Virus record (IMG/VR): IMGVR_UViG_3300023116_000213
Coordinates: 1-30,410 of that record
Length of the DNA: 30,410 bases
DNA from: a virus
Taxonomy: Duplodnaviria; Caudoviricetes
Direction: 5' to 3' (one strand)
In this document: piece after piece, positions 1 to 13,096 of the stretch
Numbering within the stretch: the stretch's first letter is position 1
Layout: each line of letters opens with the position of its first letter
The notes under the pieces: model-generated
What the model was told of the DNA's origin: nothing
Seen by the model: the letters and a program-made list of their open reading frames with translations, nothing else
Databases searched by the model: none
Translations under genes and position numbers: made by a program

Positions 1-77
1 TCAAGGAAGGAAATCTGTAAAGTTCTCCAATAATTTCTCCCGATAAAAAACCAATATAATACATGAAGATAGGTTAC

Positions 78-152
78 GCTGACTTTTTAGCCTATCAAGA
101 TAGTACGAAGTCTCCAACTTGACAGGCTCGGACAAGTCCTTAAAAAGTCAGC
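78..152. repeat. Inverted repeat / hairpin GCTGACTTTTTA...TAAAAAGTCAGC
   Basis: 12-bp perfect arms at 78-89 and 141-152. Confidence 0.8.
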
Positions 153-183
153 ATCATTTCTTAGACTTATTTGGTTTATCTAG

Positions 184-212
184 TTGACATGGAGTCTATA
201 AAGTTATAAAGT
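184..212 (+). promoter_or_regulatory. sigma70-type early promoter P1
   Basis: TTGACA (184-189), 17-bp spacer, TAAAGT (207-212); predicted start ~219. Confidence 0.7.
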
Positions 213-250
213 AATATACATGTATTATATTAATTTTTTAAGGAGAAATT

Positions 251-469
251 ATGAGTTTAAATAATACTTTACAGATTGACTTCCACTGTGAAGACAATTC
301 CTGTGTATCACTATTCTCTTATGAAAGTGCTTTAGCTTTCATGAAAGAGTCTTACTACATGATTAGGTCTATTTGGTCTAATTCATCTAATGTCGAAGAA
401 AAGCTTTTTGAAGCTTATTTCGAAATTCAAGATAACTATTTAATTGAGGAGGAATTATACAATGAGTAA
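251..469 (+). CDS. Hypothetical early protein (acidic, 72 aa)
   Basis: AGGAGA RBS, downstream of P1. Confidence 0.75.
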   Translation: MSLNNTLQIDFHCEDNSCVSLFSYESALAFMKESYYMIRSIWSNSSNVEEKLFEAYFEIQDNYLIEEELYNE

Positions 470-752
470 ATTTAGTTATGAAAACCTAACCAGAAAGCAA
501 CAACTGGCTCCAGCAAGTTTCAATACCTGCAAACATGTTTCGTTGCACTTTGCGGGAGGTGTTGGATATCAACAACGAACACCGCAACAATGGAATCTTT
601 ATAGAAACTTGCGTTCAACTTTGTATAATTTGACAAAGTCGAAGAAAAAGTCCGAAGTATTTACAATGGAAAAAGCAAACGCTTTGCTCCAAGTAAACAA
701 GCTTCCAAGCATTTACAAAAAAGCAATGGAGGACTTTTTGGAAGGTAAATAA
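462..752 (+). CDS. Hypothetical early protein (basic)
   Basis: ATG 462 preferred over the TTG at 444 because of the GAGGAGG RBS; followed by a terminator. Confidence 0.75.
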   Translation: MSKFSYENLTRKQQLAPASFNTCKHVSLHFAGGVGYQQRTPQQWNLYRNLRSTLYNLTKSKKKSEVFTMEKANALLQVNKLPSIYKKAMEDFLEGK

Positions 753-766
753 TTCCCGACCTTCCC

Positions 767-795
767 AGCCCTTGGAGAAATCCGAGGGCTTTTTT
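767..795 (+). terminator. Rho-independent terminator
   Basis: AGCCCTTGGA-GAAA-TCCGAGGGCT followed by a T-tract. Confidence 0.85.
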
Positions 796-1094
796 ATGCC
801 CTTAAAAAATTTCGCCTCGCCTCTTCGAGGCTCGGTCTTAAAAGGTCTTTTGTTTCACAAAAGGCTCCTATCTTATGAACCGAAGAGGTGAGAGCTAACC
901 AACACAAACCATAAAAAATACTGCGAGGATTTCTCCTATACAGTATATTTATATAAAGACTATAAAACTGTATAGTATTCTAAAGGCAGGAAAATTCTTT
1001 GGCGAAGTGTTGATTGCGACTATAAGAATTTTTATATTATTCTTTTAAAGGTATTAGGAGGAGTTGTTCTAAAGCCCGTTAAAGAACTTTAAAG

Positions 1095-1123
1095 AGTGTA
1101 GCATATTTTTTACTAACTTGCAA
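1095..1123 (-). promoter_or_regulatory. Leftward sigma70-type promoter
   Basis: Minus strand TTGCAA, 17 bp, TACACT, with TGn extended -10; no sizeable ORF downstream. Confidence 0.5.
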
Positions 1124-1176
1124 GATTTGTAACACACTCCCTCGCAACACCCCATATTGATAAGTATATATAAGGC

Positions 1177-1205
1177 TTGACGCTTCGGCAAAGCTGTGCC
1201 ACAAT
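1177..1205 (+). promoter_or_regulatory. sigma70-type early promoter P2
   Basis: TTGACG, 17 bp, CACAAT, with TG extension. Confidence 0.6.
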
Positions 1206-1248
1206 GGTTCCAGAAATCGGAATTGTCCCATTTCAAAACGGAGAAATT

Positions 1249-1437
1249 ATGTTATCTTTTGAATCTTATCAAGGAGCTATTATCCACCTTAAAAAGGAAG
1301 GTTATAAGTTCTTATCAGACTTCTCTAACAGAGGAGATGTTCATAAACATTACTATAAAGGGCAGAGAGTTGTTCTTTTAAATGGGAGCTTTGTTCCCTA
1401 TGAAGGTTATAAATACTATTTACAAGAAGTTAAGTAA
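1249..1437 (+). CDS. Hypothetical early protein (62 aa)
   Basis: GGAGAAATT-ATG at 1240-1251; the TTG at 1177 is the -35 box of P2. Confidence 0.7.
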   Translation: MLSFESYQGAIIHLKKEGYKFLSDFSNRGDVHKHYYKGQRVVLLNGSFVPYEGYKYYLQEVK

Positions 1438-1485
1438 ATACATGTATTATAAAAGAAAAACCACATAGTAAATATTATATAGGTA

Positions 1486-1514
1486 TTGACACCGAAACCA
1501 AGCTGTGTCATACT
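1486..1514 (+). promoter_or_regulatory. sigma70-type early promoter P3
   Basis: TTGACA, 17 bp, CATACT, with TG extension; leader hairpin TCGGC/GCCGA follows. Confidence 0.7.
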
Positions 1515-1558
1515 GTTATCAATTCGGCAATGAAGCCGAGTTTAATTAGGAGAAATTT

Positions 1559-1858
1559 ATGTTTGATAGAAACATTCAAAAATCTAGCTCTACATATGAA
1601 GAGGCTAGAAAAATCGAAGATAAAATTCAGAATGCTGGATTTAAAAGAAGAGAGCAAATTAATCAGTTAATTGATGAAATGCTTACTGAATATAAAGAGT
1701 TGCACAAAGAAACTACAGAGTTTCTACACACTAGAATAAATCGTTGGGATACTCTAGATGTTGTTGTTCGACTATCTCAATACGGAGTAGGGTTGCATAA
1801 ACTTGGAACAGCTTACTCAAATGGTATTAACTCAATTGCTTGTAATAAGCCAGACTAA
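1559..1858 (+). CDS. Hypothetical early protein (helical, 99 aa)
   Basis: AGGAGA RBS; first gene of the P3 operon. Confidence 0.75.
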   Translation: MFDRNIQKSSSTYEEARKIEDKIQNAGFKRREQINQLIDEMLTEYKELHKETTEFLHTRINRWDTLDVVVRLSQYGVGLHKLGTAYSNGINSIACNKPD

Positions 1859-1873
1859 AATATTGGAGGGAAT

Positions 1874-2026
1874 ATGAAATATCATTTTAACATTACGATT
1901 TCAACAGACGATACTGTAGAAGCTACTACAGAAACAGAAGCCATAAGCCAAGTTAAAGCAAACTTTATGCAAGACTTTAACATTCCTTTGTGTGATTCAG
2001 AAATAACTTTATTGGAGGTAGAATGA
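1874..2026 (+). CDS. Small hypothetical protein (50 aa, MKYHFNITISTDD...LLEVE), not in the ORF track
   Basis: GGAGGG RBS; stop overlaps the next ATG (ATGA). Confidence 0.7.
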   Translation: MKYHFNITISTDDTVEATTETEAISQVKANFMQDFNIPLCDSEITLLEVE

Positions 2027-2271
2027 AAACAGTTAGTATAACAGGAGATAAAACAGTCGTTACTTACAAGGGTCATACTGTACATTGTTACGGTAAGCTC
2101 AAAGATACTTCAACAATTATCTATGCTTTATCCAATGGTTGTGAAGGTCATACAGATAACTATGATTATGACAACAATGAGCCTTATACAGATTGGGAAG
2201 CCTTTGTTAAAGATTGGGTAGAACTTGAGGGTGTCGATGATTTTAATGTAATACAATTGGAGGTAGACTAA
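2023..2271 (+). CDS. Hypothetical early protein (acidic)
   Basis: GGAGG RBS, translational coupling. Confidence 0.75.
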   Translation: MKTVSITGDKTVVTYKGHTVHCYGKLKDTSTIIYALSNGCEGHTDNYDYDNNEPYTDWEAFVKDWVELEGVDDFNVIQLEVD

Positions 2272-2468
2272 TGATTGTAGAATTATGTGATAGTAAAAAG
2301 TTCACTGCTTTTAGAACAGATTTAGATAAGGTTTTACAAAAGCATTATCCAAATACTGATTATGAATGGGAATATTACGATGAAGGTTATAGCGATGCTT
2401 CATCAACAGATACTAATGCTAAGTGGCGATTAGTAAGAATCTATATGGACTTAGAGGAGGAATCATGA
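2271..2468 (+). CDS. Hypothetical early protein
   Basis: GGAGG RBS, TAATG overlap. Confidence 0.75.
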   Translation: MIVELCDSKKFTAFRTDLDKVLQKHYPNTDYEWEYYDEGYSDASSTDTNAKWRLVRIYMDLEEES

Positions 2469-2632
2469 AAGACCAAGACGTACTTAAAGAGTACTTTTTA
2501 AATCAACACTTTACCCCTACGGATAAACAACGCAGGGCATTGAATGACTACTTTATGACCAACATGCTAAAGGTTATGGAGGGTAACTATAAGAAAGATG
2601 AAGCAGGAAATATCTTTAAGGAGGAGGAATGA
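2465..2632 (+). CDS. Hypothetical early protein (55 aa)
   Basis: GAGGAGG RBS before ATG 2465, ATGA overlap. Confidence 0.7.
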   Translation: MKDQDVLKEYFLNQHFTPTDKQRRALNDYFMTNMLKVMEGNYKKDEAGNIFKEEE

Positions 2633-2820
2633 CTGAGCTAGAAAAAGTAAATTACTTACAAAATATGTCGCAGTTCTTTGGAGACTTTATAGGTATTGCC
2701 ATGGTGGTATTGGTTGTGCTAATCTTTACGCTGTGGATATTTGCTTGGTGGGCTACATCAAGTACTTTCATAGGTTGTCAAAAGACTAAGGAGAAAAACA
2801 ATGAGAGGTCAGATAGTTAA
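2629..2820 (+). CDS. Small single-pass membrane protein
   Basis: Hydrophobic segment FIGIAMVVLVVLIFTLWIFAWWA with a basic C-terminal tail; AGGAGG RBS. Confidence 0.7.
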   Translation: MTELEKVNYLQNMSQFFGDFIGIAMVVLVVLIFTLWIFAWWATSSTFIGCQKTKEKNNERSDS

Positions 2821-2995
2821 TTGGGAATATGATAATTCACTTACAGAATATGAGAACTTTCGAAGATGGTTCGATTGTGCTAATGAAGAACGCAGAAACT
2901 TTAAAGAACCCGAACTTAGCCTACATGAAGCCAAGGTTAAGTACGAGGAATATATGGGTATTAAACTTAATTTTGAGGAGGGATTTAACGAATGA
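2801..2995 (+). CDS. Hypothetical early protein
   Basis: AGGAGA RBS. Confidence 0.7.
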   Translation: MRGQIVNWEYDNSLTEYENFRRWFDCANEERRNFKEPELSLHEAKVKYEEYMGIKLNFEEGFNE

Positions 2996-3219
2996 GTATT
3001 GATACAATTACAACAGAAACATGGCAGAGTTTATTTGGAGAGCAACTTGCTTCTATGAATGAACTGTCTGCAAAGATGACTGCTCAACAATTTGAAGCAG
3101 TTGTTGAAGAAGCTTTAGAAATTGCTTTCATGGGAGACTATGACGAAGAAAGAGGTTTCAAAGATTATGAAATAACACAAGCTCTGAACGAAGCTATCGT
3201 TAGTTTTATTAGAGTTTAA
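2992..3219 (+). CDS. Hypothetical acidic early protein
   Basis: GAGGAGG RBS, ATGA overlap. Confidence 0.75.
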   Translation: MSIDTITTETWQSLFGEQLASMNELSAKMTAQQFEAVVEEALEIAFMGDYDEERGFKDYEITQALNEAIVSFIRV

Positions 3220-3223
3220 AAGT

Positions 3224-3292
3224 TTGTGGCTAGGGTAGGTCGTAAGACCAACAATATAATACATAAATTTCTCCCTTAAGCCTTAGCCACAA
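3224..3292 (+). ncRNA. Stem-loop RNA displaying an anti-RBS loop (candidate antisense sRNA)
   Basis: Stem TTGTGGCTAGGG/CCTTAGCCACAA; inner GGTC-GTAA-GACC hairpin; loop 3253-3274 is complementary to 220-231 and 1549-1562. Confidence 0.55.
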
Positions 3293-3297
3293 TTTAA

Positions 3298-3620
3298 CAT
3301 AAGTGTAAGACGAGCTTACTGTAAAATCCAGAAGTCTGAACTGTTTTGCAGGGTGACGAAGTAGGTCGTAAGATAAAGTTTAGGATGAGTGCTAGAACCC
3401 GTCGCCTATAACACTATGTAGTCGCAACAGGGACTATAAAACCCTAATGGTTAAAGGTGCTGTTGGAGGAGCTTGATAAGTGCTTCGTAACCAAAAACTT
3501 ATCGTTACTTTAGTTTAAATCCTAGAGTTAGTTTGGATTAGCTATCCTTACTGTATCACTAGGCTTACGGACTGCTAGGTAGAGTAGTCACGTTCTTGGA
3601 GGAAAGCACCTTGAACATTT
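3298..3620 (+). ncRNA. Large multi-stem structured RNA of unknown family
   Basis: ORF-free intergenic region with about ten helices, several needing G-U pairs on the + strand; long-range pairing 3454-3461/3605-3612. Confidence 0.55.
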
Positions 3621-3642
3621 CATTACTTGTAGGAGGGTAATT

Positions 3643-4344
3643 ATGTATAAATTATTAGGAGTTGGTAGTAACTATAAAACTGCAAAGTCAGATAAGATAT
3701 CTGAATATCTCACGGCTATCATGTATATGATGCCACTCAATACTAGAATATGTCCGTATCAAGACATTGCTAAGTGCAAGTCTGCTTGTTTGAATACAGC
3801 GGGACGAGGTGCATTCAGTAATGTACAGAAAGCTAGACTTAGAAAGACCGAATGGTTTCTCAATGACGAGCCTAGTTTCATGGAGCAGTTGTTTCAAGAC
3901 ATCACTAAGTTTGTTCGTCATTGTACTAAGCACGGCAGAAAACCTGCTGTCCGTCTTAATGGTACTTCAGACATTCAATGGGAGTACAAAAAGTATCTTG
4001 GTCAAACTCTGTTCGAACACTTTCCAGAGGTGCAGTTCTATGACTACACTAAGATACCAACACGGAACATAAGTAACATTCCAAACTATCAGCTAACTTG
4101 GAGCTACTCAGAAGCCAATCTCAAGTATGCTGACTTCTTTAGAGAAGCATTAGACAAGGGTATGAATGTGGCGGTGGTATTCAATCACGACTTACCCAAA
4201 GAATTTAAAGGTGTCCCAGTCATTGACGGTGACTTGCATGACTTGCGATTCCTTGACCAGACAAATTCAGTGGTCGGTCTTCGAGCCAAAGGCTCAGCTA
4301 AGAAGGACGATTCTGGCTTTGTAATTAATTTAATCAACTTATAG
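3643..4344 (+). CDS. Gp88-like phage protein (CxxxxxxxCxxxC, possibly Fe-S / radical-SAM-like)
   Basis: Motifs CP...CKSACLNTAGRG, VRLNGTSD, FYDYTK, DGDLHDLRFLD, GLRAKG are typical of the GP88 family. Confidence 0.75.
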   Translation: MYKLLGVGSNYKTAKSDKISEYLTAIMYMMPLNTRICPYQDIAKCKSACLNTAGRGAFSNVQKARLRKTEWFLNDEPSFMEQLFQDITKFVRHCTKHGRKPAVRLNGTSDIQWEYKKYLGQTLFEHFPEVQFYDYTKIPTRNISNIPNYQLTWSYSEANLKYADFFREALDKGMNVAVVFNHDLPKEFKGVPVIDGDLHDLRFLDQTNSVVGLRAKGSAKKDDSGFVINLINL

Positions 4345-4352
4345 GAGGTATT

Positions 4353-4574
4353 ATGACTAAATTAATAATTGAAAAAAATATTCCAATCCCGGCTTATTCA
4401 AGAAGCCAAAAGTGGAAAGCCATTACATCGAGAATGGAAAGAGGCGATTCTGTTTTGTTAGAAAATAGAACTCAAGCTTGTGGCTTAATAAACTCAGCAA
4501 AGTTTATACCCTTTGACATGAAGTTTACTACAAGAAAAACCCCTGAAGGTATTAGAGTTTGGAGGATTCTATAA
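4353..4574 (+). CDS. Small basic phage protein, putative DNA-binding
   Basis: IEKNIPIP...GDSV...GIRVWR pattern is common in phage small proteins. Confidence 0.65.
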   Translation: MTKLIIEKNIPIPAYSRSQKWKAITSRMERGDSVLLENRTQACGLINSAKFIPFDMKFTTRKTPEGIRVWRIL

Positions 4575-4909
4575 TGAAAAATTTATTACGCAAATGGCTT
4601 GGTCTTGTTGACCTTACTAAAGCTGTCAACACTCTTAGAGTACAGATTTTGGACGCTACCAAATCTACTGACGACTTGAAAGACGACATCATTAATGACT
4701 TGGAGTATGAGATAGACCGTAAGGTTGAAGATACTGTTGATGACCAAATCTCAAACTACTCAGATAGGTTTGATGACCTTGACAGTATACGATATGACTT
4801 TGATGACTTCAAAGCTGATTTTGAACAAAAGATAGACTCATTAAAAGAAGACGTTGAGTTCCTATCTATTCTCAATAGACTAGAAGCTTTGGAATCTAAA
4901 GTAAAATAA
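4574..4909 (+). CDS. Acidic helical early protein
   Basis: GGAGG RBS, TAATG overlap; ~29 D/E in 111 aa. Confidence 0.7.
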   Translation: MKNLLRKWLGLVDLTKAVNTLRVQILDATKSTDDLKDDIINDLEYEIDRKVEDTVDDQISNYSDRFDDLDSIRYDFDDFKADFEQKIDSLKEDVEFLSILNRLEALESKVK

Positions 4910-4913
4910 GAGT

Positions 4914-5018
4914 TTTGGCTCAGCAATAATCGGAGTTATCCTCAAATTATTTCGATATCATTGATAGGTTTCAATGAGGGCAACGGGGTAGCCTTGAATA
5001 CCCCACCGCTGAGCCAGA
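4914..5018 (+). ncRNA. Four-way-junction (cloverleaf-like, non-tRNA) structured RNA
   Basis: Closing stem 4914-4924/5008-5018 encloses hairpins 4925-4951, 4958-4977 and 4985-5004. Confidence 0.6.
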
Positions 5019-5033
5019 TTTATTGGAGGTAAT

Positions 5034-5255
5034 ATGATAAATAAAACAGAACTAATGAACTTTATCAGAAACCAAATACATGATGATTTGTTTGTCGAAC
5101 TTTCAGAGGAATGGGAGAACGAAGAAACTTATTATTATAATGCTAATTGGGTTAAAAATATCAGAGAAGCAGAAGATATAACAGAACTAAAAGAAACTTT
5201 GATTACAATAGTCAGAGGTCTTAGTAAATATTTACAGGAAACAAAATGGAACTAA
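5034..5255 (+). CDS. Hypothetical protein
   Basis: GGAGG RBS. Confidence 0.75.
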   Translation: MINKTELMNFIRNQIHDDLFVELSEEWENEETYYYNANWVKNIREAEDITELKETLITIVRGLSKYLQETKWN

Positions 5256-5494
5256 CTAAGAACGAATATGCGATTGCTTACGCAGTCTTTAGCACCAACG
5301 ATATTGATAGTGTCATACTATTTTTTCGTTATCAGAAACCAGATGAAGAAGCTATTAGTAGTAGACTGGTCTTGGTGACTGATGTTAAATGCGACCACCT
5401 GATTGGTACTGAAATAAGTACTGGTCTGAAAAAACGTTTTAACCTAGAAAATATCGTAGACGATTCTTGTAAAGTTTGGACTGAAGTATGCTAG
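5246..5494 (+). CDS. Stand-alone WYL-like domain protein
   Basis: Pattern hhFxYxK..E.SxR.V....L.G......RFxLxxI resembles the WYL (Sm/SH3-like) fold. Confidence 0.5.
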   Translation: MELTKNEYAIAYAVFSTNDIDSVILFFRYQKPDEEAISSRLVLVTDVKCDHLIGTEISTGLKKRFNLENIVDDSCKVWTEVC

Positions 5495-5503
5495 AATAAT
5501 AGC

Positions 5504-5794
5504 ATGACCAAGTTTGAATCTAAAAAGAAAAAACCAGATTGGGATAGTATTTCCACATGGGAAGATGCCAACAATGCTCTTGTTATGTGGGTACTAACTC
5601 CCAACTGTATTCGAGAACGTATGACAGAAACCGGTAAATCTTTTAAGGTTTCTAATGAAATGATATACGAATTTTGTTATCACTCTCGTAGAGGGTGGGA
5701 TATGGAGGCATTCAAAAATGCTTTCAAAGATTTTGTTATTGAGAATCTGGAAGAAGAGATAAAGTTTCAAGAACCTAGGAATTTTATAACATGA
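5504..5794 (+). CDS. Hypothetical protein
   Basis: ORF in operon; weak RBS. Confidence 0.65.
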   Translation: MTKFESKKKKPDWDSISTWEDANNALVMWVLTPNCIRERMTETGKSFKVSNEMIYEFCYHSRRGWDMEAFKNAFKDFVIENLEEEIKFQEPRNFIT

Positions 5795-6078
5795 ATAATA
5801 AAAAAATTAAAAAATTAAAAAGTAAAGTTAAACATATACAACTAGGATGGTTTCAAAGTTTATTACCAGAAGGTGAAAAAGAAAAAGCTAATCTGGACAA
5901 TATAAGTTCTTTGATGCCGGACCAGACCCATGTGTTTGCGAATGGTAGAATAAACTTATCCTTCATGACTGATAAATTTGTTATGAAGTGGTTAAAAAAA
6001 TGTCCTGAGATAGAGACATATGAGGAGCTAATGCATTATGCAGAACATAAGACATTACCTAGTAAAGGTAGTGATTGA
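5791..6078 (+). CDS. Hypothetical protein
   Basis: ATGA overlap with the upstream gene. Confidence 0.7.
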   Translation: MNNKKIKKLKSKVKHIQLGWFQSLLPEGEKEKANLDNISSLMPDQTHVFANGRINLSFMTDKFVMKWLKKCPEIETYEELMHYAEHKTLPSKGSD

Positions 6079-6289
6079 CGGAGAAGAAGATGAACTAAAA
6101 AGTTTTGGTGAATCAGAAATGGAGATACTCGATAACATGGTAGAGATACCAGCTGTTGACGAGGTCCTTGAAATTAAAGACTTGGAAACAGGTAAGAAGT
6201 GGATAGGAGGAGGCTCTCTTGAAAAGTTAAGAGAGATTAAAAGTGAAATAAATAAATTCTTTAGCACATCTAAAAAGGAGGTACATTGA
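6038..6289 (+). CDS. Hypothetical protein
   Basis: ORF in operon. Confidence 0.65.
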   Translation: MQNIRHYLVKVVIDGEEDELKSFGESEMEILDNMVEIPAVDEVLEIKDLETGKKWIGGGSLEKLREIKSEINKFFSTSKKEVH

Positions 6290-6543
6290 TGGACTATGAT
6301 ATTGGATTTGTCTCAAAGTTTAGAGACCCACATCCCGAAGCACCCGTAGAAGTTTGCTATTGTCTAACCAAAGACCAAGCAAAATTATTCAAGGATATGA
6401 TTGACAATATCTTTGACTACGAAGATAAAATTAATTGGCGAGTAGATATTACTAACAACGGTAATCTGTTGCATTTCTTTGATGAAGATATGTTTCAACA
6501 GATGCACTTGCATTCTATTTTAGAGGAGGTTATGGATAGATGA
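6289..6543 (+). CDS. Hypothetical protein
   Basis: AGGAGG RBS; TGATG overlap (alternative TTG at 6286). Confidence 0.7.
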   Translation: MDYDIGFVSKFRDPHPEAPVEVCYCLTKDQAKLFKDMIDNIFDYEDKINWRVDITNNGNLLHFFDEDMFQQMHLHSILEEVMDR

Positions 6544-7046
6544 ACATATTTTATTTTTACGATTGTCCACGCAAATGTGCTGAGGCTCAGCCTGATAAGA
6601 TGTTAGTCAAGATGCCTTTAGAAACTGCACAAATGTTATGTACAGCTCACCGTGTTTTAGATGGTGACGAGTATGCTGATATGGCAGGTCTCTATAAGAC
6701 TGCTTACAAGAATCATCCTTGTACTATCTGGGCTAGAGAAACATCCGGTAACTATGCATGGCTCTATCAACACTTCGATGCTTTGTGTTGGGAATACTTG
6801 CACCGTTATGGTCGCACTCATGCTTCGTATCAAAAGTTATCAGTAGCATTGACTAAGGTGCCTGACAACATAGCACAAGCTGAGAAGACACCTGTTGCTC
6901 TGGCTATGCCGGACCAATACAAAGAACCCGATGACCCTATACTGTCTTATAGACAATACTGTATAGCGGAAAAGACATATGCACAATGGAACAAAAGTAG
7001 ACCGAGACCACCTTGGTGGACTGCACCAAATGCTTGGACTGCTTGA
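6540..7046 (+). CDS. Pyrimidine-dimer DNA glycosylase / T4 endonuclease V-like family protein
   Basis: MNIF...DK..VKMPLETAQML...NHPCTIW.R...NY.WL...EY..RYG..H signature. Confidence 0.75.
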   Translation: MNIFYFYDCPRKCAEAQPDKMLVKMPLETAQMLCTAHRVLDGDEYADMAGLYKTAYKNHPCTIWARETSGNYAWLYQHFDALCWEYLHRYGRTHASYQKLSVALTKVPDNIAQAEKTPVALAMPDQYKEPDDPILSYRQYCIAEKTYAQWNKSRPRPPWWTAPNAWTA

Positions 7047-7071
7047 CATGAATTATGAATTGGATTAATAT
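7043..7071 (+). promoter_or_regulatory. sigma70-type promoter for the replication operon
   Basis: TTGACA, 17 bp, TAATAT. Confidence 0.65.
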
Positions 7072-7079
7072 TTACAGTA

Positions 7080-7232
7080 TGAAGATAGAAGGCAACAATC
7101 TAAGAGCATTGAGTGATGTTTGCCCTCGTCTATCTCCATTACTCTCACTCAATCCAATCACATGGTCCCCTCGTGGGTGGGGAACTCTTAAACCCACACA
7201 ACTATTAACTACTTTTAATGGAGGATATATCT
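7080..7232 (+). promoter_or_regulatory. Structured 5' leader of ssb with an H-type pseudoknot
   Basis: Hairpin 7083-7135; pseudoknot S1 7166-7170/7179-7183, S2 7173-7178/7192-7197; A/U-rich tract up to the SD. Confidence 0.6.
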
Positions 7233-7643
7233 ATGATAGTTGAAGGTACTGCGTATTGGGCTTCGATAAGAACCCCTAATACAACTTATGAGCCTATGTA
7301 CACAATCAACTTAGTTGTTGATGAAGAAACTGCAAAAGATTTTGCGGCTCGTGGACATGGCATTCGTGAAATGGAAGAAGGTCCTGCTGTCGTTATCAAG
7401 AGGAAAGTAAATGGTCCTAATGGTATGGTCAGAAAGGCACCTAGACTCCTAGACCAAAATAAGAATGACGTTGATGTTCTTATTGGAAATGGTTCCACAG
7501 TTAGAGTTCAGTATTCTGAATATGATTGGGAATGGAAAGGAAAAGCTGGTAAGGGTTTAGACTTACAAGCTGTACAAATTGTGGATTTAGTTCCTTATAA
7601 AACCGGTGATGGTGACGAGCTGTTAGACGGTGAGGAGTTTTAA
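7233..7643 (+). CDS. ssb: Single-stranded DNA-binding protein (T7 gp2.5 / DUF2815-like)
   Basis: G.AYWA...PNT..., IGNGS.V.V, GLDLQAVQIVDL and an acidic tail ending in aromatic F (DGEEF); lies upstream of primase. Confidence 0.8.
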   Translation: MIVEGTAYWASIRTPNTTYEPMYTINLVVDEETAKDFAARGHGIREMEEGPAVVIKRKVNGPNGMVRKAPRLLDQNKNDVDVLIGNGSTVRVQYSEYDWEWKGKAGKGLDLQAVQIVDLVPYKTGDGDELLDGEEF

Positions 7644-7645
7644 TT

Positions 7646-7882
7646 ATGCAAATTAATTTTGACGGTAAGGTGTATGAAACTGAAAAGCTTACTGACCCAA
7701 AAGTTAGACAACAAGTTCAAGCTTATGTAAGTCAGATTGCTTTTAACAATCAGTTTCAAATCTCACTACAAAAATCCAATGACAAACTACAAGAGGAACT
7801 TAGACCTCTACTAGTTGAAGAGGCATTGGTTGAGCAAGAGGAAACTGCAGAAGCAGAATCCAACAGCAAAAAATCTAAGTAG
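7646..7882 (+). CDS. Hypothetical coiled-coil protein
   Basis: INFDGKVY N-terminus followed by a coiled coil. Confidence 0.7.
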   Translation: MQINFDGKVYETEKLTDPKVRQQVQAYVSQIAFNNQFQISLQKSNDKLQEELRPLLVEEALVEQEETAEAESNSKKSK

Positions 7883-7900
7883 TTTTTTCATATTATTTAA

Positions 7901-7925
7901 CGGGGGTCTTCGGACCCCTGCTTTT
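7901..7925 (+). terminator. cUUCGg hairpin / weak terminator before primase
   Basis: GGGGTC-TTCG-GACCCC then CTTTT, directly before the primase RBS. Confidence 0.65.
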
Positions 7926-7936
7926 GGAGGGCAAAA

Positions 7937-9613
7937 ATGGAAACCAAATCAACATGGGTAGAATTTCACGTACCCTGTAACTTATGTAAATCAAGCGATG
8001 CAGTCTCAGTAAATGAAGACGGCTCAGCTAAATGTTTTAGTTGCGGAGCTTTCTTTCCGGACTACAAAACACCTGAGGGTATTACAAAACCCAAAGAATC
8101 AAACACCTTTTTATCAACATATAAAGGTGATTACTATGACCTAATAGACCGCGGTATTGATAAGACCACTGCAAAGAGATTTGGAGTACGTGCTATCACT
8201 GACCAGAACGGAGACATCCAAGAACATATTTATCCTTATTACAATGGGGATGAAATTGTTGGAACTAAGTCTCGTTATGTCAGAGATAAACGTTTCTCTT
8301 TCGGAGGGACCTTTGATAATACCGGTCTATTTGGTGAGCAACTCTTCCGTAATAAAGGCGGAAAGTATCTCACTATTACTGAAGGTGAGTGCGATGCTAT
8401 GGCGGCTTATCAAATGTTTAATGGTAAGTATCCCATCGTCTCACTAAAACGTGGAGCTTCTGGTGCTGTTAAAGATATCAGAGAATCCATAGAATTTGTC
8501 GAGTCTTTTGACCAAGTTATTCTTTGCTTTGACAATGATAAACAAGGGAAGGAGGCGGCTAAGAATGTCGCAAGGATTATCAAGCCCGGGAAAGTTAAAA
8601 TCATGGGTTTGCCTAATGGCTATAAGGATGCCAATGACATGCTTAAACAGGGTAAGTTCAGTGAATTTACTCAAGCATTCTGGGATTCAAGACAATATAC
8701 ACCTTCAGGAATTATCGAGCTATCCAGTAAAAAGAAAGACTGGCTACATCGAGAGGTAAAACCAAGTATCCCCTATCCTTGGGAAGGCTTAAACAATAAG
8801 TTGTACGGGCTGAGGAAAGGGGAACTGGTCACCTTTACAGGTGGTACAGGTCTTGGTAAGTCTAGTGTTACTAGAGAACTTGAACACTGGATAATTAAAA
8901 ACACTACAGACAACGTTGGTATCATTGCCCTTGAAGAAAATTGGCAACGAACAGCTGATGGTATTGTGTCTATTGAAGCTAACGATAGAATATATCTTAA
9001 TGAAAAAAGAGATAAATATTCGCCAGACCAACTCGAATCTTTGTTTGACAAAGTCATTGAGGAGGGAAGAGTATTTATCCATGCTCACTTAGGAGCAACT
9101 GACATTGACGATATCTTTGCTAAGCTTCGATACATCATCATTGGCTGTGAGTGTGAATGGGTAATTGTTGACCACTTACATATGTTAGTTAATGTTCTTA
9201 CTGAAGGTGATGAACGTAGAGGTATTGATACCTTGATGAATCGTTTACGTAGTCTGGTCGAAGAGACCGGAGTGGGTATGTTATTAGTCTCACACTTAAG
9301 ACGTGCCTCTGGCGACAAAGGTCACGAGCAAGGTGTGGAAGTCTCCTTGTCCCACTTAAAAGGTTCACAAGGTATCGCTCAACTCTCTGATTGTGTTATC
9401 GCTTTAGAAAGAAACCAACAAGCGGAAGACCCTGTGGTCGCTAACACAACTAAGTTACGCGTTTTAAAATCCAGATACACAGGAGATACTGGACTTGCTT
9501 GTAATTTATTGTATGATAATGATACAGGTCGATTACATGAAAAAGAATTAGAAGATGAAATTGATGAATTTCTCATGACAAGAAAAGATTATGAACAACA
9601 ACTCACTCTCTAA
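7937..9613 (+). CDS. T7 gp4-like DNA primase-helicase
   Basis: N-terminal Zn finger (CxxC...CxxC), TOPRIM (ITEGECDA, FDND), Walker A GGTGLGKS, VDHLH, KSRYTG. Confidence 0.95.
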   Translation: METKSTWVEFHVPCNLCKSSDAVSVNEDGSAKCFSCGAFFPDYKTPEGITKPKESNTFLSTYKGDYYDLIDRGIDKTTAKRFGVRAITDQNGDIQEHIYPYYNGDEIVGTKSRYVRDKRFSFGGTFDNTGLFGEQLFRNKGGKYLTITEGECDAMAAYQMFNGKYPIVSLKRGASGAVKDIRESIEFVESFDQVILCFDNDKQGKEAAKNVARIIKPGKVKIMGLPNGYKDANDMLKQGKFSEFTQAFWDSRQYTPSGIIELSSKKKDWLHREVKPSIPYPWEGLNNKLYGLRKGELVTFTGGTGLGKSSVTRELEHWIIKNTTDNVGIIALEENWQRTADGIVSIEANDRIYLNEKRDKYSPDQLESLFDKVIEEGRVFIHAHLGATDIDDIFAKLRYIIIGCECEWVIVDHLHMLVNVLTEGDERRGIDTLMNRLRSLVEETGVGMLLVSHLRRASGDKGHEQGVEVSLSHLKGSQGIAQLSDCVIALERNQQAEDPVVANTTKLRVLKSRYTGDTGLACNLLYDNDTGRLHEKELEDEIDEFLMTRKDYEQQLTL

Positions 9614-11321
9614 TGTTGTCTTTGATATTGAAGCAAATGGTCTAAAACCTGACACAGTTTGGTGTCTCGTAGCCAAGGAAGTTGATGGCACTATACATCG
9701 ATTCGGTCCTAACGAAATCGATAAGGGCATAACCCTCCTTGTAAATAGTAATACCTTAATAGGTCACAACATTCTTGGTTACGACATACCTGTTTTAGAA
9801 AAACTTTACAATGTTAAATTCAACAACAAGATAATAGACACACTAGTACTATCTCGATTATTTAATCCGGTACAAGAAAACGGACACAGTCTAAAAACCT
9901 GGGGTTACAGATTAGGAATGCCTAAGATGGAACAGCCTGAGTTTGAAAGCTTTACTCCAGAAATGTTGGATTACTGTAGTCGGGATGTACAACTTAATGA
10001 AGCAGTCTATAAAGCTTTATTAAAATCAGGTCGCGGATTCAGTACAGAAAGTATTGAACTGGAACACGAGGTCGCTAAGATTCTCAAGACTCAAGAAGAA
10101 CATGGTTTCTTATTTGATGAACAATCTGCAACAATGTTGGTTGCTACTCTTAAAGAAAAAATGTTTACCGCTGAGAAAGAAGTTCACAAGGTTTTCAAAC
10201 CTAGACTTCTTAGAGATAAATTAGTTGTACCAAAGCTTAAGAAGGACGGTACTTTATCTAGGGTTGGACTTACACCGCAGGAATTTGATGACTGCATGGA
10301 CCGTCCTTTTTATCGTAAGAAACTACAAGCATTCAATCTAGGTTCGCGTAAACAAATCGGTGAATACTTAGTAGACTTTGGGTGGAAGCCTAAGAAGTTT
10401 ACTCCAACAGGTCAGCCGATTGTGGACGAGAATATCCTATCTAAGATTGATGATATCCCTCAGGCTAAACTTATAGCCGATTACCTTTTATACCAGAAGA
10501 GAATTGCTCAGGTCGATTCATGGCTTGAAGCAATTGAAGAAGACGGTAGAGTTCATGGACTTGTTATTCCAAATGGAACTATTACAGGTCGTATGACTCA
10601 CCGTAAACCCAACATGGCTCAAGTACCTAATATGGGTTCTTTGTATGGTAAAGAATGTCGTAGCTGTTGGATAGTTCCAGAAGGATTTAATTTGCTTGGT
10701 GTGGATGCCTCCGGCTTAGAGCTACGTATGTTAGCTCACTACATGAAAGATGAAGATTATAAAAATGAAATCTTACACGGTGATATTCATACTGCAAATC
10801 AAAACATGGCAGGTCTTGAAACTAGAGACCAAGCAAAAACTTTTATATATGCCTTCGTTTATGGAGCAGGTGATGCCAAGATAGGTCAAATAGTTGGAGG
10901 CAACAAAGCCTCTGGAAAGGCTTTAAAAGATAGATTCTTATCAAACCTCCCGGCATTGAAAAGCTTACGTGAGAGAGTGAATAAGGCAGCCTCACGTGGG
11001 TTTTTGAAGGGGATTGATGGACGTAAAATCTATGTCAGGTCCGAACATGCCGCATTGAATACTCTTCTTCAAGGAGGAGGAGCCATTGTGATGAAGAAGG
11101 GTTTGACATTACTACAAGAAAAATTTAACTTATTAAATGTGGATGCAAAATTTGTAGGAAATATTCATGATGAATGGCAGATTGAAGTGAAGTCTTGCCA
11201 AGCTTCTAAGGCTGGACATCTTGCAGTTTCTGCTATCCAAGAAGCTGGAAAACATTTTGATATGTTTTGTCCTCTGGATGGTGAATACAAGATAGGAGAG
11301 AATTGGAGTGAGACTCATTAA
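9591..11321 (+). CDS. polA: Family A (T7 gp5-like) DNA polymerase with 3'-5' exonuclease
   Basis: DIEANG (ExoI), GHNILGYD (ExoII), YC..DV (ExoIII), DASGLELR (motif A), AKTFIYAFVYG (motif B), HDE (motif C). Confidence 0.95.
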   Translation: MNNNSLSNVVFDIEANGLKPDTVWCLVAKEVDGTIHRFGPNEIDKGITLLVNSNTLIGHNILGYDIPVLEKLYNVKFNNKIIDTLVLSRLFNPVQENGHSLKTWGYRLGMPKMEQPEFESFTPEMLDYCSRDVQLNEAVYKALLKSGRGFSTESIELEHEVAKILKTQEEHGFLFDEQSATMLVATLKEKMFTAEKEVHKVFKPRLLRDKLVVPKLKKDGTLSRVGLTPQEFDDCMDRPFYRKKLQAFNLGSRKQIGEYLVDFGWKPKKFTPTGQPIVDENILSKIDDIPQAKLIADYLLYQKRIAQVDSWLEAIEEDGRVHGLVIPNGTITGRMTHRKPNMAQVPNMGSLYGKECRSCWIVPEGFNLLGVDASGLELRMLAHYMKDEDYKNEILHGDIHTANQNMAGLETRDQAKTFIYAFVYGAGDAKIGQIVGGNKASGKALKDRFLSNLPALKSLRERVNKAASRGFLKGIDGRKIYVRSEHAALNTLLQGGGAIVMKKGLTLLQEKFNLLNVDAKFVGNIHDEWQIEVKSCQASKAGHLAVSAIQEAGKHFDMFCPLDGEYKIGENWSETH

Positions 11322-11559
11322 CTGTTATTGTAATTCTCGTGAATTGGATGATTTACTTGCAACAACAAATGAATTTTCCGAACCTATTGCAACTTATGTT
11401 GATATAGACGAAGTCATGGGATGGAAAACTGTAGTTACGGATTACCAGATTTATGGTATGGAAACAACTTACTACTCTCCCGACAAATCCACTACAGAAT
11501 TTATTTGTTTAAGTTGTTTATTGGAATGGAGGAAAGATGAAACCTACCAAGAAAGATAG
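11308..11559 (+). CDS. Small Cys-containing hypothetical protein
   Basis: GTG start overlapping the pol stop, AGGAG RBS, CYC...CLSC. Confidence 0.6.
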   Translation: MRLINCYCNSRELDDLLATTNEFSEPIATYVDIDEVMGWKTVVTDYQIYGMETTYYSPDKSTTEFICLSCLLEWRKDETYQER

Positions 11560-11962
11560 AAAAAAGTTTGACCTAGATTTACAGTATGGTCAAATTAAAG
11601 AAGACGAAATTGCTGAAATGTTTGCTAATTGCAAGATTGAAGTTAAATCAGAAAGAGGTATGTGGATGAATACCGGTAACATTGCTGTTGAATATGAAAG
11701 CTATGGAAAACCTTCTGGCATTAAAGCTACAGAGGCAGACTATTGGTTTCACAATTTATGTGTCAACGGTAAAATATATTGTACGTTGGTTTTCCCAACA
11801 GATAATCTTAAGAAGATTGTAGAAAAACTAGATACATTTAAAACAGTAAGTGGCGGTGACCACAATGCTAGTAAGATGTATTTAGTCGCATTATCCAAGC
11901 TGTTTTCTGCTGATGTTCTTAAACAATTTGAGGAGCTAGAAAATGGCAAAGAAGAAACTTGA
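11537..11962 (+). CDS. PD-(D/E)XK-like nuclease family protein
   Basis: G...E, IEVKS, TGNIAVE, SGI..T.ADYW. Confidence 0.6.
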   Translation: MKPTKKDRKKFDLDLQYGQIKEDEIAEMFANCKIEVKSERGMWMNTGNIAVEYESYGKPSGIKATEADYWFHNLCVNGKIYCTLVFPTDNLKKIVEKLDTFKTVSGGDHNASKMYLVALSKLFSADVLKQFEELENGKEET

Positions 11963-12815
11963 AACAGTTGTTGATGATATTTACCACGTAGTTGGCAAAC
12001 TAGGTAACGGTGAAGAACTTAACATAACAGAAAAACAATTTAAATCTTTTGGTAAGTTTATGGAACATGCCTTAAGAGATTGGGCTACTCCAAGAGAAGC
12101 TCAAAGACCTACACTGCGAATGTCTAACATTGGTAGACCAACAAGACAGCTATGGTTTGATATGAACTCAGAACGTACACCTAGCGGTCTTCCTGCACCG
12201 ACCATGATTAAATTTCTTTATGGTCATATCTTAGAACGTTTAGTGCTTTTTCTAGTAGAAATAGCCGGACATAAAGTCACAGACGAGCAAAAAGAAATCA
12301 CTGTTGGTGGTATTACTGGACACATGGACTGTAAGATTGATGGTCAAGTAGTAGATATTAAATCCGCCTCTGGATTTGGCTTTCAAAAATTTAGAAATGG
12401 AACATTAGCTGAGCAAGATAGCTTTGGTTACATGTCTCAACTTGCTGGATACGAAGCTGCTGAAGGTTTAGACTCTGGTGGTTTTCTTGTTATCAACAAA
12501 GAAACTGGAGAATTATGCCTGTTTCTTCCTGAAGACCTTGACAAACCCAATATAGAGACTAAAATTAAAAAGGTTAAGTCTGCAATTAAACGCACTACTC
12601 CTCCTGAGTTTTGTTACGAGCCTATCGCAGACGGAGCTTCTGGAAATTTCAAATTACCTAGAGAGTGTACATACTGCAATCACAAGTTTGAGTGTCACAA
12701 AGATGCGAATGATGGAAAGGGATTGCGGGTATTTGAATATGCAAGAGGTCCTGTTTACTTAACAAAGGTAGAACGAGTACCTAATGTGGTAGAAATTACA
12801 AAGGAGTCTAAATGA
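11943..12815 (+). CDS. PD-(D/E)XK exonuclease (Cas4/RecB-like)
   Basis: GHMDCKIDGQVVDIKS, QLAGY, C-terminal CxxCxxxxxC. Confidence 0.8.
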   Translation: MAKKKLETVVDDIYHVVGKLGNGEELNITEKQFKSFGKFMEHALRDWATPREAQRPTLRMSNIGRPTRQLWFDMNSERTPSGLPAPTMIKFLYGHILERLVLFLVEIAGHKVTDEQKEITVGGITGHMDCKIDGQVVDIKSASGFGFQKFRNGTLAEQDSFGYMSQLAGYEAAEGLDSGGFLVINKETGELCLFLPEDLDKPNIETKIKKVKSAIKRTTPPEFCYEPIADGASGNFKLPRECTYCNHKFECHKDANDGKGLRVFEYARGPVYLTKVERVPNVVEITKESK

Positions 12816-13096
12816 AATATAAATTTAATGAAGATAAATTAGTTGAAGAACTACAACGGTATATATACGACACTTATGGTCAACATTATGCTACAGACAA
12901 ATATCAAGCTACAGATATTATTATTGATTCTGGACATGGTACGGGATTCTGTATAGGGAACATTATGAAATATGCCAAACGTTATGGTAATAAAGAAGGA
13001 AGAAATAGAAAAGACTTACTAAAAATATTACATTATGGAATTATTATGTTACACATTCATGATGAAACAGATAAATTTTTTAAGGCAGGAGAATAA
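12812..13096 (+). CDS. DUF3310 / T7 gp1.7-like putative nucleotide kinase
   Basis: HY...GFCIGNIMKYAKRYGNK...DLLKILHY. Confidence 0.65.
   Translation: MKYKFNEDKLVEELQRYIYDTYGQHYATDKYQATDIIIDSGHGTGFCIGNIMKYAKRYGNKEGRNRKDLLKILHYGIIMLHIHDETDKFFKAGE

Follow-up and report, generated by a model that had tools for sequence, protein, structure and literature searches.

The phage sRNAs described so far are mostly single RNAs, encoded by temperate phages that infect model hosts. The c4 RNA of phages P1 and P7 displays sequences in loops that pair around a ribosome-binding site (RBS), and differences in these sequences go along with heteroimmunity between related phages, according to the accessible part of the account (PMC12197685). 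For the CI RNA of P4, the available excerpt describes a small hairpin processed from the early transcript, which base-pairs with seqA and seqC on either side of it and leads to premature termination (PMC4825925). Unpaired anti-Shine-Dalgarno (anti-SD) motifs are also found in the α-r14/cuckoo (NfeR1) and AbcR sRNAs of alphaproteobacteria including rhizobia, where they are predicted, in the sections of the article at hand, to block translation initiation in trans (PMC7143759).

The element described here, module A (positions 3224 to 3292), is a conserved RNA hairpin of roughly 70 nt and the first unit of an array of structured RNAs in a marine phage. The window, i.e. the whole stretch of 30,410 nt that was analysed, is a fragment of a podophage-like genome. 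Module A opens a 420-nt gene-free gap in front of a gene of the GP88 family, and the tandem array that starts with it extends over approximately 400 nt (Table 1). The sequence-only reading had described a 12-bp stem holding a GNRA hairpin and an open loop, and this fold was confirmed: the plus strand revealed −22.8 kcal/mol with a z-score of −5.19 and none of 200 shuffles was as good, compared to a z-score of −1.85 for the minus strand. No intrinsic terminator was called at module A, which has a 43-nt interior and no U tract. The GNRA hairpin of the window's loop is formed by a 13-nt stretch (3235-3247) identical to positions 3361-3373 of module B, and the anti-SD word is left open.

Table 1. 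Position of the RNA units, candidate targets and promoters within the window.
Feature	Position	Strand	Remarks
Inverted copy of 214-284	5..70	+	colinear, degenerate; has two words in common with the module A loop
P1 leader and start of ORF 251	214..284	+	includes the 12-nt match and one of 9 nt; predicted to pair in cis with 5-70
Sigma70-like site, strong	1486..1514	+	opens a run of small ORFs leading to the array; weaker sites in between
RBS and start of ORF 1559	1549..1562	+	best own candidate target; complementarity, shuffles, cofolding
Module A, closing stem, 5′ strand	3225..3236	+	pairs with 3280-3291; 12 bp, kept in relatives
Module A, GUAA tetraloop (GNRA) hairpin	3238..3249	+	private to the window's lineage
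Module A, variable loop (candidate guide)	3250..3279	+	predicted mostly unpaired; 8 types among relatives
Module A, CAU (start-codon complement)	3262..3264	+	loop sequence comparison
Module A, anti-SD word CUCCCUU	3271..3277	+	CUCC part invariant in all variants
Module A, closing stem, 3′ strand	3280..3291	+	fold and 13-variant comparison
Module B	3298..3419	+	conserved pseudoknotted RNA unit, optional insert
Module C	3427..3497	+	separately conserved; other orders in other arrays
Module D	3515..3608	+	separately conserved unit

Relatives of module A were retrieved with a pattern from its 3′ flank that did not include the loop. This pattern yielded 12 viral and 20 metagenome loci (redundant), 29 of which contained module A with altogether six loop types, all ending in CUCC(C/U)U. 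A second pattern, which required the stem and CUCC, contributed two further loop types and raised the total to eight (T1 to T8); in these two, CUCC is kept by construction. The closing stem is 100% paired in the 13 distinct variants. Of its 12 pairs, seven are invariant, three show one-sided (G-U) and two show two-sided changes, and the G-U changes favour an RNA of the plus strand. The loops differ widely, while CUCC is invariant across the variants. They share runs and look related by descent. The GNRA hairpin occurs in only one of the eight types, most of the others having at its position a GGAG-like stretch that pairs with the anti-SD. This internal GGAG/CUCC helix is 77-85% paired across the variants (counted as alignment cells), and since most types possess such an intramolecular partner, CUCC could be purely structural. 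On the other hand, the 5′ partner varies among the types (GGAG, GGGG, GAGA or absent) and CUCC stays fixed, which suggests a second constraint. All eight types contain (C/U)AU 4-8 nt upstream of CUCC, four of them as CAU; the chance of this arrangement is 0.37-0.61 per loop type and, as the types are related, they do not represent eight independent events. Due to the CUCC(C/U)U end and the (C/U)AU upstream of it, the loop looks like the complement of a Shine-Dalgarno/start region. The genes of one carrier, G255, are arranged differently: its early operon is divergent, and its terminase, portal and coat genes lie on the other arm (by eye), indicating that module A moves between phage groups.

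A comparison with 81 loci showed that the gap consists of separately conserved blocks. With a 15-nt pattern taken from the second block, 63 viral loci were found, of which 43 were recognized as true arrays by a second motif. Besides module A, 15 landmark motifs occur in changing orders in 76 loci (redundant; landmarks defined by eye, some of which may be parts of one unit). Shuffled units, a dozen or more, are present in the window at 3298-3608 and in loci L082-L144 and L254-L263, with one anti-SD unit per array, and many arrays lie directly behind a promoter-like site (by eye). In 15 variants of the short form of module B, 11 of 22 pairs showed two-sided changes, a value reached by none of 500 shuffles. 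A paralogous form of module B exists in L020, L078 and L125. Rfam, including its C4, self-cleaving ribozyme and cuckoo-type sRNA families, gave no credible hit at E values up to 10 for the window (1-8000 and 3200-3660) and none at E values up to 1 for 14 array-bearing loci; a resemblance of module B to the hatchet or twister ribozyme was dropped because of the missing Rfam match. The array had no significant match in 50,697 annotated phage records, and the literature searched contained no account of the hairpin or the array, though the motif lists of large RNA-discovery screens could still hold some of the units. The RNA family is real, and both the family and the modular array in which it resides are apparently undescribed. 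Farther downstream in the window, a second GC-richer intergenic stretch (4915-5015) is closed by a TTTTGGCTCAGC/GCTGAGCCAGA stem and is possibly another RNA unit.

The stretch with module A is present in RNA libraries. At least a part of it was contained in 24 runs, 20 of which are on record as RNA; three hold half or more of its words. In four metatranscriptomes the array is covered by RNA contigs, which span all of module A in three cases and its 3′ part in one. These contigs show neither strand nor ends nor processing, DNA carry-over is possible, the runs were picked with this very stretch, and contig depth cannot rank the array against genes. The strong sigma70-like site (Table 1) is likely the source of the array precursor, which would arise by read-through into the array.

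To understand the relation of the loop to its own genome, complementary sites within the window were identified and analysed. The two longest matches named in the sequence-only reading are exact: 3261-3274 is the reverse complement of 1549-1562 (14 nt), covering the RBS and start of ORF 1559, and 3253-3264 that of 220-231 (12 nt) at the 5′ end of the P1 mRNA. The matches claimed for the RBSs at 242 and 1240 are likewise exact, 3266-3274 being the reverse complement of 242-250 and 1240-1248 (9 nt each), but there was no cofolding gain at the corresponding starts (251 and 1249); the pairing proposed for the gp88 start is present, but weak and also without a gain. Since cofolding forbids loop-loop geometry, these values are conservative. 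A word shared by the first gene behind each early promoter had been postulated as well. It does exist: GGAGAAATT has only three occurrences on the plus strand of the 30-kb window (242, 1240 and 1549), in each case at the gene that comes first after a sigma70-like site (184-212, 1177-1205 and 1486-1514). The loop match exceeds chance, a match of at least 14 nt in the early region being obtained with only six of 3000 dinucleotide shuffles of the loop. For the whole window 34 of 3000 shuffles reached this length, and 20 of 3000 did so when CAU and CUCC were held fixed; a match of at least 12 nt is weaker evidence (70 of 3000). In view of the eight loop types examined, the 14-nt match is significant, though not overwhelmingly so. 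ORF 1559, an orphan without a family, has two database relatives. It ranked first among 57 own predicted gene starts on cofolding with the loop (−6.5 kcal/mol). Counted together with its complement, the 10-mer ATGTATTATA is found four times in the early region and array of the window's phage, and the word was absent as a leader motif from the other carriers checked.

Some further elements of the early region deserve mention. The word ATACATGTAT lies at 216-225 and 1438-1447, each copy overlapping a very short ATG-led frame, and is a possible operator. A leader hairpin TCGGC...GCCGA followed by GGAGAAA is located at 1525-1545, and in L086 on the minus strand near 3035 and 2125. It is found repeatedly between an early promoter and the first gene, these first genes being unrelated, and may thus constitute a mobile promoter-leader unit. 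Positions 465-749 show weak similarity to L315 (3304-3636; 27% over 78 aa, E value 0.043), where the gene is oriented oppositely with respect to the array, a hint at a possible inversion of the first cassette.

Is the complementarity to own early genes a general property of the family? In nine other carriers a comparable self-match was not found, the longest own upstream match being 8-11 nt, which falls within the range of cross-phage loop matches (7-12 nt). A T3 record that is 91% complete contained, with its own 21-nt target pattern at two mismatches, no site besides the module. T4, T5, T7 and T8 carriers possess zero to one own copies of their 8-nt target word. Within the window, the longest own match downstream is 8 nt, and the complementary site upstream is confined to the window's lineage. 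The best own starts ranked 1, 2, 2, 3 and 6 of 439 for five loop types (expected rank about 4-11), and 32 and 97 of 439 for two others. In T1, T2 and T3 the preferred RBS spacer follows the loop, a weak trend that T4, T5, T7 and T8 do not show. Hence, of the expectation that the stem is kept while the loop co-varies with early RBSs, the constant stem and the variable loop with its anti-SD end stood, but the co-variation did not. A conserved network of antisense guides shutting off early genes with delayed feedback, as put forward in the sequence-only reading, is therefore not supported.

The same reading had regarded 5-65 as a second free guide of this network. This is not supported, since for 5-70 a pairing in cis with 214-284 is predicted (z-score −7.64). 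In transcripts that begin farther upstream, the RBS of ORF 251 would be sequestered by the predicted long cis hairpin (5-284), inside which the promoter at 184-212 starts. In a near-identical strain (L226), a perfect TTGACA-17-TATAAT promoter is located at 4790-4818, about 420 nt upstream of the position where the window starts; it points into the window and adjoins the start of a divergent gene (by eye). Owing to this upstream consensus promoter and the cis pairing, 5-70 might silence in cis within long transcripts instead of serving as a free guide.

The earlier fallback, a target in the host or in a competing phage, has gained ground and is now the more likely reading, but the candidates obtained among viral gene starts and SAR86-order genomes were not convincing. 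For none of the loops was a near-perfect partner detected among 2,425 predicted viral gene starts. Contiguous pairing from SD to AUG with real gene starts exceeded that of shuffles for T1 and T2 (6 of 300 each), and was not above shuffles for T3, T4, T6, T7 and T8. For T2, 28 of 1,634 viral starts can be paired all the way from SD to AUG, compared to 2.6 for shuffles, and several loop types with rare spacers (4 nt, or containing G/C) pair with one to three starts only. The T1 pattern was present in 17 of 251 SAR86-order genomes (control, 8); of 18 matches three were translated, with one gene start. The T6/T7 pattern occurred in six of 266 SAR86-order genomes and none of five translated matches opens a long frame, while a viral scan for this target returned the module itself and one unrelated gene start. 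Two loop words searched together gave 77 viral matches, the hairpin being present only in the near-identical strain. A 19-nt match of T5 was rejected as a target because it falls on an internal methionine of an endolysin. With one or two bulges, about 21-23 nt of the window's loop can pair with the start of a 94-aa gene (L313 19064-19348; L326 4882) near the coat gene in the structural region of G255-type phages, a different group that also carries module A. This start was second among the 2,425 for the window's loop, and other loops reach such energies by chance. None of 80 loci with the gene was linked to the window's phage and the loop-fitting start is confined to one small clade, so that it is a lead only. 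As to the host, the DNA polymerase has its closest isolates among HTVC103P-type pelagiphages (50-52% identity), whereas the closest cellular relatives returned for the phage Hsp20 (16875-17306) are mostly SAR86 or unclassified Gammaproteobacteria (43-47%), a weak hint at SAR86. In 266 SAR86-order genomes no such array was detected, which says nothing about the host.

We infer that module A is cut out of a longer early transcript. Pairing would be nucleated by its A/U-rich open loop at the start codon and the first codons of a target, in most loop types it would then displace the internal GGAG partner, and CUCC(C/U)U would cover the SD. In this way the hairpin would prevent the initiation of translation in trans. 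Its loop would be retuned from lineage to lineage and directed chiefly against targets other than the own early genes, namely host genes or a co-infecting phage. The outside targets are probable since carriers with other loops lack self-matches, even though in the window's lineage the loop may also reach ORF 1559. For this mechanism as a whole we see about an even chance. The alternative that module A represses the own promoter-proximal genes, chiefly ORF 1559, once the array is transcribed, draws on the 14-nt match beyond chance and the first rank of ORF 1559 on cofolding, on the restriction of GGAGAAATT to three promoter-proximal genes, on the repeated ATGTATTATA that other carriers lack as a leader motif, on the spacer trend and, as a mild point, on the high ranks of own starts for five types. 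However, the short own matches of the nine other carriers, the T3 record and the rarity of own target words in T4, T5, T7 and T8 speak against such a feedback, as do the missing cofolding gain at 251, 1249 and gp88, conservative as this value is, and a gene start in another phage that pairs with the window's loop better than ORF 1559. We thus consider it unlikely.

It is also conceivable that module A is a structural or protein-binding RNA that serves, as its constant neighbours would, as a decoy, a scaffold or a processing signal, and in which CUCC merely partners the 5′ GGAG and the loop drifts. The well-paired internal helix, the covariation in the constant folds of the neighbouring modules, the relatedness of the loops and the lack of a target found match this assumption. 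It fits poorly with a CUCC that is invariant although its partner varies or, as in the window, is lost, with (C/U)AU at start-codon distance in all loop types and with the self-match of T1, and appears rather improbable. Read backwards, the loop consensus resembles a generic strong start region (AAGGAG, A/U spacer, AUG), and a decoy that damps many host messages as a class would explain the 28 starts matched by T2; many mRNAs are addressed by the α-r14 and AbcR sRNAs through unpaired anti-SD motifs, as the available sections state (PMC7143759). By contrast, the types with rare spacers match too few starts, and the phage's own GGAG-led genes would be hit as well, which leaves this explanation with a small chance. 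Finally, the conserved word might belong to the opposite strand or to the DNA itself. The minus strand does contain a 49-codon ORF (3264-3115) with an RBS, and the loop could be a half-site of the palindrome ATACATGTAT, which occurs twice near early promoters (216 and 1438). But four of the eight loop types have ATA and not ATG, several reach a stop within 4-7 codons, the G-U changes in the stem favour a plus-strand RNA, and the palindrome is absent from the other carriers checked, making this reading far-fetched.

The trans-acting block of translation initiation with outside targets, as preferred above, can be extended. Marine phages might share a pool of a dozen or more interchangeable RNA cassettes, in which module A would be a reprogrammable guide with a fixed scaffold and a loop rewritten against the gene start of a host defence or a competing phage; we put this forward tentatively and regard it as doubtful rather than probable. 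If true, a constant scaffold with an exchangeable anti-start loop in a marine phage array would represent a new layer of host take-over or of conflict between phages, and module A would lend itself naturally as a model for programmable translation repressors. Should the guide idea prove wrong, the array still provides several new RNA families, one of them strongly covarying.

What are the closest counterparts of module A? Regarding the genome, the HTVC103P-type pelagiphages (bioRxiv 10.1101/2019.12.14.876532) have a similar run of small early genes in front of SSB, primase and polymerase, but there is no such array in the annotation of HTVC103P 1-13,000, and neither "non-coding" nor "small RNA" occurs in the accessible text of that preprint. 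With P4 CI, as described in the excerpt available, module A shares the small hairpin in an early transcript, from which it would be processed, and complementary sites in the same region; it differs in that the flanking targets are not conserved and that the conserved word is an anti-SD. The α-r14 and AbcR sRNAs have the unpaired anti-SD motif and the predicted block in trans in common with it. According to the sections at hand, however, these chromosomal sRNAs comprise three hairpins and keep the loop motif while the stems vary, whereas module A keeps its stem, varies the loop beside the anti-SD and resides in a phage array. The likeness to c4 lies in a loop that shows the complement of a ribosome-binding region. 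In contrast to c4, module A has no Rfam match, forms a single large loop instead of the c4 fold and belongs to a shuffled array of multiple RNAs; an antirepressor or immunity operon was not seen at module A, nor was a conserved cognate target in its transcript or a co-varying own target in the nine other carriers. Judged by these comparisons, module A would work like c4, P4 CI and the rhizobial anti-SD sRNAs, yet it does not appear to belong to any of these groups.
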